Shown here piece by piece: positions 55,285 to 64,000 of a DNA stretch of 64,000 nucleotides. Every line of letters begins with the position of its first letter. The first letter of the stretch is position 1. The stretch lies in NCBI GenBank assembly GCA_902499925.1, contig GCA_902499925.1_4130.1; one strand, written 5' to 3'. The position numbers and the translations under genes are program-made. The stretch is from Escherichia coli (GTDB lineage: Bacteria > Pseudomonadota > Gammaproteobacteria > Enterobacterales > Enterobacteriaceae). The notes below the pieces were generated by a model. That model saw only the letters and a list, made by a program, of their open reading frames with translations, was not told where the DNA came from and did not search any database.

Positions 55285-55390
55285 GTACAGTTCTCCTTAT
55301 ATTCCTTCTATAGTACACCAGTACTGAAAGGATGTCAAGGGTTTTGTTTATGGGGTATAAATATGATATAATGAATAAAGGAGAAGAAAT

Positions 55391-56539
55391 ATGTTACCTT
55401 TTGTTAGAATGTTTGATTATGGGAATGAAGCACCTACCAACTCTGGGCGTTTTAAAATATATTCCAGTGATTCTATGTATCTTCATGATACTTATACTGA
55501 CAAGTTGTATGCATCTTCTGCGACGAATTGGGGTACTGGTACAGGTGTAGCATCGAGTAAATTTATTCTTTGTGCGGAGAATGTTAAACGAGTTCTATTG
55601 GAAGATAACAGTAGTGATTGTCAATTGTATGAAGAGAAAGGTACTGGAAAAGTTTTTATCACTGGTAACACGAAGGCATTCACTGGTGTAACTGATAGAA
55701 AAACTTTGTGGACGGACTGTACTACGTGGATAACATCAAGTGGTATTAATGTTTCTGATATAAAATACATGAGTAGTTTTTATGATATGAAGGTGAATTT
55801 GATAACAAACGATGGTACATTGTATTGTTGTGGAGCTAACAATATATCGAACATATCATCATTTGGTGATGGCACAAACATTAATTCTTTTAACACATTC
55901 AAAAGAGTAGATACTATAACTTCGGTTAAAAAGGCAGTTGGTAACATTTATTTGCGAGAAGATAATACTTTATGGGGTTGTGGTTTTAACTATTACTACC
56001 AGTTGGGCACGGGTAATCAAACTTCTATTACTGGGGTGACGATGATTTCTTCGGATGTTATAGATTTTAATGTAAGTTATCAGAGTACATTTTTTATCAA
56101 ATCGGATAATAATTTGTACGCTTGTGGTAAACAGTTCGGTGCACAATATGGGAACGAATTTGGTACAGGTGGTACTTCCTCTTCTACTGATATACAATAT
56201 AAAACTCCCACATTATTGAGTGCAGGTGTTTATAGTTTATATACTTGTGTTGGTAACATGGCATCACATATAGTTAAAGGTGATGAAGTACTTTATGCAT
56301 CTGGAAGCAACTCGTCTGGTCAATTAGGTGTTGGTAATAATAATAATCAGTACTCCTATACTCCTTCATATACTTCGTTTAATACCTCTTGTAATTTGGT
56401 ACGCACCCCATCTGGTTCACTTATACTTACTGATACTGGAAAATTATATTATTGTGGCCTTGCAATAGTAGTAATGGGTGGTATTTCTGGACAGAACGTT
56501 CTTAATTATACAGAAGTCGATATGTCATTTTTGCAGTAA
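55391..56539 (+). CDS. RCC1-like repeat protein, cassette 1
   Basis: 382 aa; N-terminus MLPFVRMFDYGN; repeated 'L(Y/W)xxGxNxxxQLGxG' units; AGGAG SD. Confidence 0.85.
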   Translation: MLPFVRMFDYGNEAPTNSGRFKIYSSDSMYLHDTYTDKLYASSATNWGTGTGVASSKFILCAENVKRVLLEDNSSDCQLYEEKGTGKVFITGNTKAFTGVTDRKTLWTDCTTWITSSGINVSDIKYMSSFYDMKVNLITNDGTLYCCGANNISNISSFGDGTNINSFNTFKRVDTITSVKKAVGNIYLREDNTLWGCGFNYYYQLGTGNQTSITGVTMISSDVIDFNVSYQSTFFIKSDNNLYACGKQFGAQYGNEFGTGGTSSSTDIQYKTPTLLSAGVYSLYTCVGNMASHIVKGDEVLYASGSNSSGQLGVGNNNNQYSYTPSYTSFNTSCNLVRTPSGSLILTDTGKLYYCGLAIVVMGGISGQNVLNYTEVDMSFLQ

Positions 56540-56547
56540 ATTAATAT

Positions 56548-56573
56548 GCCAGTACTTGATACTGGCTTTTTTT
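56548..56573 (+). terminator. Rho-independent terminator between RCC1 cassettes
   Basis: GCCAGTACTTGATACTGGC followed by TTTTTTT; same element after each cassette. Confidence 0.7.
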
Positions 56574-56607
56574 GATTAAATATAGTATAATGAATAAAGG
56601 AGGAAAT
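56574..56607 (+). promoter_or_regulatory. Conserved cassette promoter/SD (TTGATTAAATATAGTATAATGAATAAAGGAGG)
   Basis: Identical or near-identical before every RCC1-like gene; TATAAT with no properly spaced -35. Confidence 0.5.
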
Positions 56608-57717
56608 ATGTTACCTTTTGTAAGAATGGTTAAGTACGGGAATATTGCACCAGTACCGAAAAAAATAAAGAAAGTTATAGCAGGATATGATAATTTATAT
56701 GTACTATATGGTGATGGTTCGCTATATGGTTGTGGAATCAATAACTATCAACAGTTAAATATTGATGGAACTGCTACACAAAATAATTGGGTACTAATTA
56801 CCAATGGTGTTAGTAATGCATGGGCTGGTGGATACAATATTTTATATTTGAAAGAAGATAAATTTATAATGCACGGAACTAATGTCTCATTAGGTTTAGG
56901 AAATACTACAATTCCATTAGGTGGAGTAGATGTAACTTCTTCATTCCCAGATATCTCTAATATTAAAATGATATCCATTGGTTTTGATTCAATGCACTAT
57001 GTTAGTGCTGATGGTACAACTGTATATGGAAGAGGTATGAACACAAATGGTTCTGTTGGTTCAGGTAGTACTTACTCACAGAGTACTTTCACTTCAGTAC
57101 TGAATAATGGAACTAATCAGGTTATTGATATATTTGGTAACGTTAATAATACAGTGCTTCTAACATCGAATGGTGAGCTTCGAGCATGTGGGACAAGTGC
57201 TTATGGTTCTATAGGAAATGAAACTGGTAAGTGGACATCGTTTGGTTTAAAATTATCTGGCACTAAAATAATGGGTGGTAATGGGTATAGTACGCTTGCA
57301 TATACAAATTCGGGAATGTACCACTCAGGGTGGCAGTTAAATGGGGAACTAGGAAATGGTTTAGATACTAACGTACAGGTATATCCATTTCAATTTAACT
57401 CTAAAACGATAGATAGCAAGATAGATAAAATTGCCAAATCATCATCTGGGTCATATGTTAACATGTACTCAACAACAGAAGGAAAGATATATACGACAGG
57501 TTCGTTTGGTAAAAACGGGTCAACTACTGCATTGAATTTGTTCACCAATACATTAACACTTATAAATTACAATCCAGATACCGCCTCGTTGTATACGTGC
57601 ACAAACTTCAGTGTTGTGTATGATGGTAATGAAACTATTGCTGTAAGTGGTAGTCCTACATATGTACCAGGGGGCGTTGCCGCTAATAGATGGACTACAA
57701 TTCCATTACCCAAGTAA
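56608..57717 (+). CDS. RCC1-like repeat protein, cassette 2
   Basis: Start at MLPFVRMVKYGN after AAAGGAGG; track ORF starts earlier inside promoter. Confidence 0.85.
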   Translation: MLPFVRMVKYGNIAPVPKKIKKVIAGYDNLYVLYGDGSLYGCGINNYQQLNIDGTATQNNWVLITNGVSNAWAGGYNILYLKEDKFIMHGTNVSLGLGNTTIPLGGVDVTSSFPDISNIKMISIGFDSMHYVSADGTTVYGRGMNTNGSVGSGSTYSQSTFTSVLNNGTNQVIDIFGNVNNTVLLTSNGELRACGTSAYGSIGNETGKWTSFGLKLSGTKIMGGNGYSTLAYTNSGMYHSGWQLNGELGNGLDTNVQVYPFQFNSKTIDSKIDKIAKSSSGSYVNMYSTTEGKIYTTGSFGKNGSTTALNLFTNTLTLINYNPDTASLYTCTNFSVVYDGNETIAVSGSPTYVPGGVAANRWTTIPLPK

Positions 57718-57788
57718 TACTATGCCAGTACTTGATGCTGGCATTTCTTTTTGTATTAAATATAGTATAATGTATAAAGGAGGAAAAT

Positions 57789-62645: not shown

Positions 62646-62715
62646 ACACAATGCCAGTACTCAAGTACTGGCATTCTTTTTGATTAAATATAGTATAATG
62701 AATAAAGGAGGAAAT

Positions 62716-63870
62716 ATGTTACCTTTTGTTAGAATGTTTGATTATGGGAATGAAGCACCTGTACCAGTTGGTATAAAGATGGTAAAAGTTTTACAGAATA
62801 ATGTGTTTATTTTATTAGAAGACGGAAGGTTATATGGCAGAGGGCATAATTTTTACTATCAATTAGGTACTGGTAGTAGTTCTCCTACTATAGTTGAAGA
62901 GTGGGTTTTATGTTTAACTGATGTAAAGGAATTTTGGACTACTGGTGATACACAAGGAATATTAGTACGTAAAAATGATGGCACATGGTGGAGTACTGGT
63001 ACTCAAATCTATCGTGGTGTTAATACTACTTATCGTGTATGGACAGAAATACTTGGTATTTTTAATAATGTGAATGACACATATAGTAAAATAGTTATAG
63101 GAAACGGCGTTACATTATTATTAACAATAGATAATAAATTATATAAGATGGGTGACAATAACAACGGTGAAGTTTTTACTGGGGCTGTTGGACAAAGAGT
63201 ATCAGTACTGACATTGACCCCAGAAGTTGATGTTAAAGATATTGGTGTAACCGCGAATAATGCTTCATTTGTATTATACAATGATGGAACATTAAAGTAC
63301 AGTGGGAATAAATCTAGTATTGGTTCGACTGGTACAACTACCACAACTACCACATTGACTACTGTTACTACTGGAGTATTACAGATAAATTCGGAAAATG
63401 CATATAGTGCTAATTACGTATTAAAGAGTGATGGGCTATATGTATTCGGTTCACAAATAGATGGACAGTTGGGTGATGGCACTGATGGCACTATTAACAG
63501 TCTTAGAACAATCACAAAGATACCAGCTTCTAGTATTCCTAGTACTGCGATTGATTACATAGGTGGTTCTAATTATGAAGCACACGTTAGAGCAGGTGGT
63601 ATATGGTATTTCGCTGGGCGTGGAAACGCTTCTGGAGATGGAATAACGAACTCTAATGTTATTAAAACATGGCGTGCATGTACTAATATAACTGAACCAG
63701 TTCCATATGATAAAATGACACATGGTTATATGATAACATTCATGTTAAAAAACGGTGAATTATATGGTTCAGGGAATGGTAGTAGAACTGCTGGTATGGG
63801 TACAATTCCGTATGAAGAAGAAAATGCCGGAAATACAGGATTATTTAAAAAAATAGTTACACCGAGTTAA
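62716..63870 (+). CDS. RCC1-like repeat protein, cassette 7
   Basis: Start at MLPFVRMFDYGN; 'FYYQLGTGSS', 'IDGQLGDG'; contains TTTTTTTLTTVTT tract. Confidence 0.85.
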   Translation: MLPFVRMFDYGNEAPVPVGIKMVKVLQNNVFILLEDGRLYGRGHNFYYQLGTGSSSPTIVEEWVLCLTDVKEFWTTGDTQGILVRKNDGTWWSTGTQIYRGVNTTYRVWTEILGIFNNVNDTYSKIVIGNGVTLLLTIDNKLYKMGDNNNGEVFTGAVGQRVSVLTLTPEVDVKDIGVTANNASFVLYNDGTLKYSGNKSSIGSTGTTTTTTTLTTVTTGVLQINSENAYSANYVLKSDGLYVFGSQIDGQLGDGTDGTINSLRTITKIPASSIPSTAIDYIGGSNYEAHVRAGGIWYFAGRGNASGDGITNSNVIKTWRACTNITEPVPYDKMTHGYMITFMLKNGELYGSGNGSRTAGMGTIPYEEENAGNTGLFKKIVTPS

Positions 63871-63878
63871 AATTAAAA

Positions 63879-63910
63879 TGCCAGTACTTGAGTACTGGCA
63901 TTTCTTTTTT
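63879..63910 (+). terminator. Rho-independent terminator between RCC1 cassettes
   Basis: GCCAGTACTTGAGTACTGGC followed by ATTTCTTTTTTT. Confidence 0.7.
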
Positions 63911-63946
63911 TGATTAAATATAGTATAATGAATAAAGGAGGAAAAT

Positions 63947-64000
63947 ATGTTACCTTTTGTTAGATTGTTTGATTATGGGAATATCACACCTGAACCTCTT
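63947..64000 (+). CDS. RCC1-like repeat protein, cassette 8 (5' end only; continues past window)
   Basis: ATG after AAAGGAGG encoding MLPFVRLFDYGNITPEPL. Confidence 0.7.
   Translation, partial: MLPFVRLFDYGNITPEPL

Follow-up and report, generated by a model that had tools for sequence, protein, structure and literature searches.

A shared N-terminal tag and modular expression cassettes in a tandem array of RCC1-like genes of an Asteriusvirus jumbo phage

Results

Structure of the array

The stretch of DNA analysed here (64,000 nt, hereafter the window) ends at 55391-64000 in a tandem array of plus-strand genes, whose products combine RCC1-like bodies with a nearly identical 12-residue N-terminal peptide, referred to below as the tag. 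Megablast of positions 55285-64000 returned 37 phage records, all of them 121Q/PBECO4/phAPEC6-group jumbo myophages of E. coli or Salmonella, with 87-99.7% identity and with no record covering more than 57% of the query in a single place. The window belongs to an Asteriusvirus (121Q/PBECO4/phAPEC6-like jumbo phages), and what it contains of the array is the proximal portion, the full array counting 11 to 16 genes in this genus; the RCC1-like paralogues of 121Q (genes 234-248), PBECO4 and phAPEC6 (gp549-gp010) occupy the same locus, with parts 87-99.7% identical. In GenBank and PHROGs, the members are labelled “regulator of chromosome condensation” or “putative DNA condensation protein”. The arrays of relatives are flanked on either side by small genes; the remainder of the window is dense with small minus-strand genes, and a tRNA scan of the 64 kb found none.

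The array comprises seven complete genes, one of them frameshifted, and one gene cut by the window edge, with starts at 55391, 56608, 57789, 59045, 60225, 61466, 62716 and 63947. The family letters used below were obtained by clustering the gene bodies of seven phages at ≥80% nucleotide identity. The features of the array are as follows (SD, Shine-Dalgarno sequence).

55310..55338, minus strand: sigma70-type promoter-like site (TTGACA-17-TACTAT), directed leftward toward the small-gene array, at the divergent boundary of the RCC1 array
55356..55373, plus strand: head-of-array promoter block TATAAATATGATATAATG, with a perfect T4-type late box TATAAATA and TATAAT
55391..56539, plus strand: gene 1, family A, 382 aa, tag MLPFVRMFDYGN, RCC1-like propeller
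56540..56607, plus strand: intergenic cassette 1, hairpin 56548-56566 with U-run (-10 kcal/mol), promoter/SD 56572-56603
56608..57717, plus strand: gene 2, family D, 369 aa, tag MLPFVRMVKYGN, protein used for the structure model
57718..57788, plus strand: intergenic cassette 2, terminator 57722-57744 (-12 kcal/mol), promoter/SD 57752-57783
57789..58970, plus strand: gene 3, family E, 393 aa, tag MLPFVRMFDYGN
58971..59044, plus strand: intergenic cassette 3, terminator 58973-59002 (-15 kcal/mol), divergent promoter block GTAAATACATTATAAT 59009-59024
59045..60154, plus strand: gene 4, family B, 369 aa, chimera
60155..60224, plus strand: intergenic cassette 4, terminator 60161-60179, promoter/SD 60188-60219
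60225..61394, plus strand: gene 5, family G, 389 aa, tag MLPFVRMVKYGN
61395..61465, plus strand: intergenic cassette 5, terminator 61402-61420, promoter/SD 61429-61460
61466..62645, plus strand: gene 6, family H, frameshifted, tag and 59 codons in frame 0, 358-codon RCC1 body in frame +1 from ~61593
62646..62715, plus strand: intergenic cassette 6, terminator 62650-62675 (-16.2 kcal/mol), promoter/SD 62680-62711
62716..63870, plus strand: gene 7, family I, 384 aa, tag MLPFVRMFDYGN
63871..63946, plus strand: intergenic cassette 7, terminator 63876-63903 (-17.2 kcal/mol), promoter/SD 63910-63941
63947..64000, plus strand: gene 8, 5' end only (54 nt), tag MLPFVRLFDYGNITPEPL, corresponding to family C of relatives

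A preliminary description of this DNA had counted at least eight genes of ~360-440 aa, each preceded by a terminator and a conserved promoter/SD block. The tandem array is real, and the window holds seven complete genes and the 54-nt fragment; the lengths need correction to 369-393 aa, since the 440-aa and 381-aa frames were produced by upstream in-frame extensions. A terminator is present in all seven spacers and absent upstream of gene 1, and the conserved block is present in six copies of 32 nt, that of gene 4 being divergent. The predicted continuation of the array past the window edge is borne out by gene 8, which is cut at 64000 and belongs to a family found in relatives.

The frameshift in gene H (~61592-61594) recurs in 11 phage records, with amino-acid identities as low as 91.7%, and in phage Turkey5 the frame is restored by a second 1-nt change ~50 nt downstream, with the replacement of 17 residues. 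A CGG codon, not used once in the six intact array-gene bodies, stands just after the likely shift point, and the dN/dS of the downstream open reading frame (ORF) was 0.48 in the comparison of the window with PBECO4, which rests on only 20 substitutions. The most probable reading of gene H is that the cassette has been inactivated; less probably, its body would be reached by +1 frameshifting or by internal initiation at GTG 61569.

The N-terminal tag

The tag consists of 12 residues, M-L-P-F-x-R-(M/L)-x-x-Y-G-N, encoded by the near-identical first 36 nt of the genes. In agreement with the preliminary description of these 5' ends, a 35-nt motif was found six times with ≤3 mismatches against zero occurrences in shuffles, and the genes at 56608 and 60225 carry a second 5' allele, GTA AGA ATG GTT AAG TAC. 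In a set of 86 5' ends taken from seven phages, six positions (M1, L2, P3, F4, R6 and N12) never varied, and Y10 and G11 were each retained in 84; non-synonymous variation was seen at codons 5 and 7-9, synonymous variation at codons 10-12, and the string ATG TTA CCT TTT was unchanged in 85 of the 86 genes. The mean pairwise amino-acid identity of paralogues was 0.88 over the first 10 codons versus ~0.1-0.35 in the bodies.

In columns with the same residue, codon identity reached 81% within the first 16 columns versus 44% elsewhere; thus, the conservation of the DNA exceeds what protein constraint demands, as had been suspected earlier. The choice of tag codons also departs from genomic usage, with GGG for Gly11 in 70/86 genes versus 12% in bodies and CCT for Pro3 in 86/86 versus 34%, as expected from gene conversion. 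At the same time, phages of other genera retain the peptide with different codons:

GAP32_001: MLPFSRIIQYGN
Erwinia phage Kaldavass, six tandem genes: MLPFP...YGN (one ends YGV)
Xanthomonas phage XaC1: MFPIPxISxYGN
Pectobacterium phage CBB: MLPF(P/S/T/A)...Y(G/A)N

This retention in GAP32, Kaldavass, XaC1 and CBB argues for selection on the tag peptide itself. A purely protein-level cause of the 5' conservation is therefore ruled out by the codon test, and a purely DNA-level cause by the cross-genus survival of the peptide in other codons. An exact-pattern scan of IMG/VR with the tag-coding DNA returned mostly 121Q and CBB, plus three chance matches.

The Vequintavirinae phage A73 (Septuagintavirus) carries, at 2645-6143, three tandem phrog_4219 RCC1 paralogues with another tag, MLEM(L/M)NLG. 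An MLE-type start was also found on most glycine-rich homologues from other phages, PVP-SE1 gp19 included, and one of the form M(L/I)E(L/M)(L/M) on many glycine-rich-domain proteins of diverse phage contigs, which suggests that a second phage lineage has a tag system of its own in parallel. Lineage-specific tags on interchangeable bodies are what would be expected of a tag that co-evolves with a partner in the phage.

Fold of the bodies and separability of the tag

The RCC1/propeller fold proposed in the preliminary description was supported by both profile and structure comparisons. Genes 1-4, 6 and 7 scored above the gathering threshold of Pfam RCC1/RCC1_2, with gene 5 just under it (21.4 vs 21.7 bits); all seven proteins matched the RCC1-like domain (RLD) model (E 1e-12 to 1e-23), and the array proteins matched phrog_4219 with E 1e-44 to 1e-110. 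An AlphaFold2 model of the gene 2 protein, built on 17 sequences, was all-beta, with a predicted local distance difference test score (pLDDT) of 85.9 and a predicted template modelling score of 0.87. Its best Foldseek match in the PDB was UVR8 (E 8.5e-23, template modelling score (TM) 0.78), followed by RPGR, the HERC2 RLD and RCC1 (1a12, 1.5e-16). The bodies of the array are thus predicted to be seven-bladed RCC1-like beta-propellers of ~40 kDa. Like the array proteins, the eukaryotic UVR8, RPGR, HERC2 RLDs and RCC1 are seven-bladed propellers with the Pfam repeats (TM 0.64-0.79); they differ in sequence (14-20% identity), and the array proteins are phage-specific, single-domain and supplied with the tag. 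Residues 1-12 of the gene 2 model, and no others, had pLDDT <50, as had tag residues 1-10 in the model of the family J protein (pLDDT 92), so that in the models the tag protrudes from the fold as a disordered extension.

Tag and body are separable, since the tag stands at the head of RCC1, Kelch, ConA/LamG-like and glycine-rich fibre-like domains. Family J (245 aa; 121Q_243, G17_00077, WPEC5 CDS0100) matches the RCC1 profile over residues 1-13 only and is a glycine-rich family, relatives of which match Pfam Gly_rich_2. In CBB, three tagged proteins (CBB_550, 552 and 554) proved to be Kelch propellers and a fourth, CBB_551, Laminin_G_3/ConA-like, all above the Pfam cut-offs, and Kaldavass CDS63 and CDS64 represent a further tagged non-RCC1 type. 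The fold search with family J gave the cyanophage Pam3 fibre as the best match (probability 0.97, but TM 0.29), and its similarity to fibre and tail-tip proteins (Pam3 fibre, Bxb1 tail tip) is weak, with TM of just 0.23-0.29. The array proteins have pI 5.1-8.2, contain 26-31% Ser/Thr/Asn and share a semi-conserved C-terminal I/L-x-L-P motif.

Recombination and array content among relatives

The content and order of the array differ in all seven phages compared; the CMSTMSU record was left out as too fragmented by frameshifts. The order of body families is given below, where an asterisk marks a tag-initiated frame of <200 aa (frameshifted, truncated or remnant).

Window: A D E B G H* I (C)
WPEC3: A D E P K B G H* I C L F M T N
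WPEC5: A D E U F C J V O W X Y Z N
ECO103: A D E P a K B H* I C L F J Q G R*
Ecwhy_1: A D E b B H* I C L F N
121Q: A S B c C J d F O* M Q e*
G17: f K B g A S C J O h M G R*

The seven phages share a pool of ~30 body families, and whole cassettes were gained, lost and translocated, with families G, A and F having changed position; family G, in particular, lies near the far end of the array in ECO103 and G17. The junction present in cassette 3 of the window precedes other genes in relatives, namely P in WPEC3 and ECO103, U in WPEC5 and b in Ecwhy_1. The E>B junction of the window coincides with the E>P junction of WPEC3 from the promoter to coding nt +37, after which the sequence becomes that of WPEC3 gene B. 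Because of this switch, the crossover of gene 4 relative to WPEC3 is placed at coding nt +22 to +37, i.e., within the tag-coding block. Gene 4 is, moreover, an intragenic chimera, the 5' half of which is WPEC5-U-like and the last ~500 nt of which are identical to WPEC3 gene B.

Different tag alleles were found on orthologous bodies in different phages; in the clearest case, the bodies of gene H in the window and in PBECO4 are 98.1% identical, but their tags are VRLFDYGNIAPV and GRMMNYGNIAPG. The variable order and content, the crossover in the 5' block and the exchanged tag alleles bear out the earlier proposal of cassette shuffling by homologous recombination.

A relic ORF was noticed in CBB (KU574722, ~8260-8350), upstream of CBB_554, in which a tag start, ATGTTACCTTTTCCGCAA, is joined to the C-terminal end ..GAVRIIYGDDRSFPN of a glycine-rich (family-J-like) gene. 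This ORF is a deletion footprint, one end of which falls once more in the tag-coding block.

Terminators and promoters of the cassettes

Each cassette consists of an intrinsic terminator, a promoter block of the form TAAATAT-NN-TATAATG and an SD, followed by the gene; of the 32-nt promoter/SD block there are six copies, where none is expected. A hairpin of -10 to -17 kcal/mol with a U-run behind it is present in each of the seven spacers (z -3.7 to -6.0). The CCAGTA..TACTGG hairpin is confined to the array within the 64-kb window (six matches vs 0.05 expected), and a hairpin of WPEC3 shows a compensatory double change, tgtcagtact..agtactgaca.

The perfect -10 (TATAAT) without a spaced -35, noted in the preliminary description, was found in the cassettes, and early promoters of the same window have a clear -35; the -10 is all that the two have in common. 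A search for a TTGACA-type -35 in the array cassettes found none, the nearest match being a weak CTGGC(A/T) in the hairpin arm, 17-18 nt from TATAGT. The cassettes were, on account of this weak CTGGCA, rejected as canonical sigma70 promoters. A MotA-box-like reading of the hairpin arm was also considered. The phage-factor-dependent (middle or late) transcription proposed earlier is plausible as a non-early class, given the missing -35 and a late-like TAAATA box.

The late box TATAAATA occurs once in the 64-kb window, against 14.7 ± 3.9 expected, and this single copy, at 55356-55363, lies 28 nt upstream of gene 1. The same box stands upstream of the structural genes of phAPEC6, which also encodes a late sigma factor, and the authors of the CBB paper derived ATAAATA as a late-gene motif. 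The internal cassettes have TTAAATA, i.e., six of the seven positions of the ATAAATA core reported for CBB late genes. Since TAAATATNNTATAATG is common to the head block and six internal cassettes (seven matches vs 0.32 expected), the internal promoters resemble duplicates of the head promoter in which TTAAATA stands for ATAAATA. We infer from these motifs that expression of the array is late, or dual, which would fit virion proteins. That TATAAATA is so depleted in the 64 kb, an early region, suggests that spurious late promoters are removed by purifying selection. ATAAATA itself occurs just twice in the window.

Tagged proteins in the virions of relatives

Published virion proteomes of relatives, a check envisaged in the preliminary description, contain many of the tagged proteins. 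The mass spectrometry (MS) list for phAPEC6 includes gp003, 005, 006, 007, 009, 010, 549 and 551, all of which are encoded in the array and tagged; 8 of its 11 RCC1-like proteins were thus detected in the virion versus 62 of 551 proteins overall (binomial p = 3e-6). CBB has nine tagged genes (CBB_536, 537, 548-554), and the products of seven appear in the published virion table (p = 5e-5), from which the untagged neighbours CBB_535 and CBB_538 are absent. GAP32_001 was reported as a structural protein identified by MS. Additionally, the W70 counterparts of the A73-type RCC1 paralogues gave 141-233 spectra in sucrose-gradient-purified virions, similar to baseplate proteins.

The shared N-terminal targeting or anchor signal proposed in the preliminary description would be the best-supported function of the tag, which is disordered in both models, occurs on unrelated folds and marks proteins enriched in virions. 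In Seunavirus SSE121, an RCC1 propeller with a C-terminal extension, gp048, is encoded by the last gene of the tail-fibre module. The particles of both phAPEC6 and CBB are hairy.

Discussion

Proposed role of the array

With moderate confidence, we consider the array to be a recombination-shuffled library of binding modules, which a docking tag common to all of them would load into the virion. It would be this tag, rather than the propeller, that unifies the genes, acting as a portable address peptide for unrelated binding modules and docking them onto a putative conserved structural acceptor of the particle. Most of the genes form autonomous expression cassettes, each with a terminator, promoter, SD and 36-nt tag code, and the boundary of ~110 nt, being nearly identical between units, could act as portable homology. 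Homologous recombination within a phage and between co-infecting phages may then delete, insert, move or re-head cassettes, which would leave each phage with its own subset and order drawn from a large pool of bodies. On the three points on which the preliminary description was most exposed, i.e., the propeller fold, the conservation of the 5' DNA beyond protein constraint and the variability of the array among relatives, it has stood.

The modules would more likely be placed outside the “hairy” particle, as accessory adhesins, than inside it as ejected proteins. This lean towards external display rests on the lectin-, propeller- and fibre-like bodies, the weak fibre match of family J and the location of gp048 in a tail-fibre module, and also on the non-basic, Ser/Thr/Asn-rich composition, the low to moderate abundance in virions and the hairy phAPEC6 and CBB particles.

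Several observations weigh against this explanation. The link between tag and incorporation is correlative and comes from shotgun proteomics of relatives, not of the phage in the window; the phAPEC6 virion list includes the non-structural topoisomerase, single-stranded DNA-binding protein, RecA-like protein and thymidylate synthase, which makes carry-over possible, and the coverage of the RCC1 proteins in it was low (3-17%). The canonical late box is found at the first gene only, the internal cassettes having TTAAATA with TATAAT, and the array sits among early-type small genes, outside the structural module. The intragenic chimeras imply that recombination is not limited to boundaries. In some relatives, the junctions are tight (8-15 nt, with the SD only and neither terminator nor promoter) and the tag is nevertheless retained, the paralogues of Kaldavass, CBB and A73 forming tight operons; the terminator-promoter cassette is therefore an Asteriusvirus elaboration that is not required. 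Finally, globular 40-kDa monomers alone cannot form 100-nm hairs.

More tentatively, the proposal may extend to a general “plug-in” display system of the Rak2-like phages, and of Vequintavirinae with the MLEMLxL tag, in which a peptide of 8 to 12 residues could suffice to dock shuffled lectin, propeller and fibre modules on a conserved surface acceptor. This possible generalisation would provide each phage with its own adhesin coat, perhaps accounting for the “hairy” phenotype, and the tag might be usable for loading foreign proteins.

Alternative explanations

The alternative that survives best, unlikely but to be taken seriously, regards the tag as a capsid-targeting sequence (CTS) and the propellers as cargo packed in the head and injected as variable effectors that counter defence or manipulate the host. 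The architecture resembles that of the T-even internal proteins, where a short conserved N-terminal peptide, the CTS of T4, directs diverse proteins into the particle and the set varies by phage (PMC3012670). Detection by virion MS, the location of the genes among host-takeover-type genes and not in the structural module, the inner body of phAPEC6 and a variability that fits an arms race with host defences are likewise compatible with internal cargo. The array tag, however, has no similarity to the T4 CTS. The prohead protease of T4 cleaves at an (L/I)xE-type motif, and neither a conserved Glu nor such a site follows the tag in the 86 sequences. The array bodies are large propeller-, lectin- or fibre-like modules with pI 5.1-8.2 and not small, compact and basic; the spectral counts in W70 are those of low-copy tail or baseplate parts and not of bulk internal proteins, and the glycine-rich family resembles fibre and tail-tip proteins, albeit with low TM.

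It is improbable that the products are not virion components at all but abundant intracellular proteins (e.g., binders of host targets), the conserved 5' end being an initiation or recombination feature and their detection by MS the result of carry-over. The invariance of ATG TTA CCT TTT in 85/86 genes, which exceeds protein constraint, fits selection on the initiation region, and the strong SD and separate promoter of each gene, the obvious contaminants in the phAPEC6 list and the early-gene neighbourhood could be explained in the same way. Yet tagged proteins are enriched in independent proteomes from several laboratories and genera, the sucrose-gradient W70 preparation among them; the peptide is kept across genera with different codons and in tight operons without the cassette, and the late box TATAAATA at the head of the array is its sole copy in 64 kb.

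A role in DNA condensation, with the proteins organising the packaged 350-kb genome or the inner body, is the reading carried by the GenBank and PHROGs annotation. The authors of the phAPEC6 paper suggested the condensation role, which was echoed in the W70 paper, and the proteins are indeed present in virions. We regard this role as very improbable. The label is inherited from eukaryotic RCC1, while the fold is a generic interaction scaffold with UVR8 as the top match. Presence, absence and order of the genes vary between close relatives, which is hard to fit to a core packaging function, and the proteins are not basic; the role was judged unlikely on these two grounds. Moreover, a frameshifted member is retained in 11 phages, CBB is devoid of any RCC1 member, and the same tag precedes Kelch, LamG and glycine-rich bodies. 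The pI, the variable gene content and the tag on non-RCC1 folds argue, indirectly, also against a function as Ran-GEF or chromatin binder.

One blade of eukaryotic RCC1 is built jointly by the N- and C-terminal segments, and the semi-conserved C-terminal I/L-x-L-P motif could suggest that the conserved N-terminus is a propeller-closing (“velcro”) strand kept for folding, a reading that is hardly tenable and was rejected, since the tag is disordered in two models, the modelled propeller closes without residues 1-12 and the same peptide is carried by non-propeller proteins (glycine-rich family J and LamG-like).

Comparison with known systems

The docking-tag array can be compared with several systems of phages. 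The promoter-early stem-loop (PeSL) cassettes of T4-like phages are likewise short composites of terminator, promoter and SD; they lie beside variable genes in plastic regions, where modular shuffling uses them as crossover points and insertions, deletions and replacements distinguish close relatives (PMC2839356, PMC4122927). PeSLs have a sigma70 early consensus, whereas the array promoter lacks the sigma70 -35 and has a late-like TAAATA box; unlike in PeSLs, the homology block of the array reaches 36 nt into the coding sequence (the tag), and its cassettes serve one paralogue array, whereas PeSLs serve unrelated ORFans. Thus, the array works like the CTS and PeSL systems without belonging to either, given the absence of a protease site, of CTS homology and of a sigma70 -35.

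A conserved attachment element combined with an exchangeable displayed binding module is also characteristic of the multi-receptor-binding systems of CBA120 and G7C, of the branched fibres of PhiK64-1/RaK2 and of Hoc, the capsid decoration adhesin of T4. Those systems rely on folded adaptors of at least 100 aa or on a C-terminal capsid-binding domain, form trimeric fibres or spikes and are encoded in the structural module, whereas the array has a 12-residue peptide, monomer-sized globular modules and a separate location.

The multiple RCC1 copies and their detection in virions have already been remarked upon in the CBB and phAPEC6 papers. In the published accounts searched, we found no description of the tag, of its spread over at least four folds and several genera or of the second tag in Vequintavirinae, and the anatomy of the cassettes and mapped cassette-level recombination were likewise undescribed; the Sharanji paper, the jumbo-phage review of Iyer et al., the JP4 supplements, the CB7 paper and a phage transposon-sequencing (Tn-seq) preprint contained nothing on the array genes.

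Few unexplained features of 121Q-like jumbo phages are as conspicuous as the RCC1-like paralogues, which are mislabelled as condensation proteins. The tag as an organising principle ties together RCC1, Kelch, LamG and glycine-rich genes that now stand under unrelated names and accounts for the recurrence of their products in virion proteomes. If the tag is a docking signal, large phages would have a new route to diversify display or delivery, with consequences for the host range of phages under development against E. coli O157 and avian pathogenic E. coli (APEC), and a small handle for cargo loading onto jumbo-phage particles would become available. The array also offers a clean natural case of regulatory-cassette-mediated modular shuffling beyond the classical T4-like phages.

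Other features of the window and of related loci

The RCC1 array is abutted by a minus-strand tandem array of ~20 tightly packed small paralogous genes (50684-55284; 59-78 aa), the products of which recurrently start with M..KEFY...L and end with ...Y.EVLKLI(S/A)I or ...LLLIYR(Y/H); its equivalent in WPEC3 is annotated as hypothetical proteins. At the other side, the array is closed in WPEC3 (34093-35945), and at the equivalent positions in WPEC5 and Ecwhy_1, by a conserved minus-strand 216-aa gene (121Q_233 homologue), beyond which there is one extra plus-strand RCC1 gene with the tag MLPFVLLFDYGN, which lacks Arg6.

At ~30500-50000, mainly on the minus strand, ~35 copies of an early-promoter unit were found upstream of small genes, with a few divergent plus-strand copies (47101, 49030, 49245). 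The unit consists of aaaAGTACTTGCA/TTGACA or TTGCAA as the -35, a 17-nt spacer, GTATAAT(g)ttttacatc, a hairpin in the 5' untranslated region, GGGGAGAAAtgGTTCTCCCC, and an SD. These units are predicted to be strong sigma70-type early promoters with a stem-loop, close to the PeSLs of T4-type phages.

The palindrome AGTACT occurs 284 times in the window (e.g., 63-68 and 480-485) against 20.4 ± 4.6 in shuffles, i.e., ~13 times the expectation from composition, and CAGTAC/GTACTG are the most over-represented hexamers of the window, with flanks favouring (C)AGTACT(G). A literature search gave no explanation for this over-representation. Coding and non-coding DNA alike contain the palindrome, which is missing at about 16-20 kb; it builds the stems of the array terminators and occurs in the flanks of the early promoters. 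It is also dense in Rak2-like phages (CBB 5.7/kb, Kaldavass 5.1/kb, WPEC3 4.4/kb) and absent from two Vequintavirinae loci.

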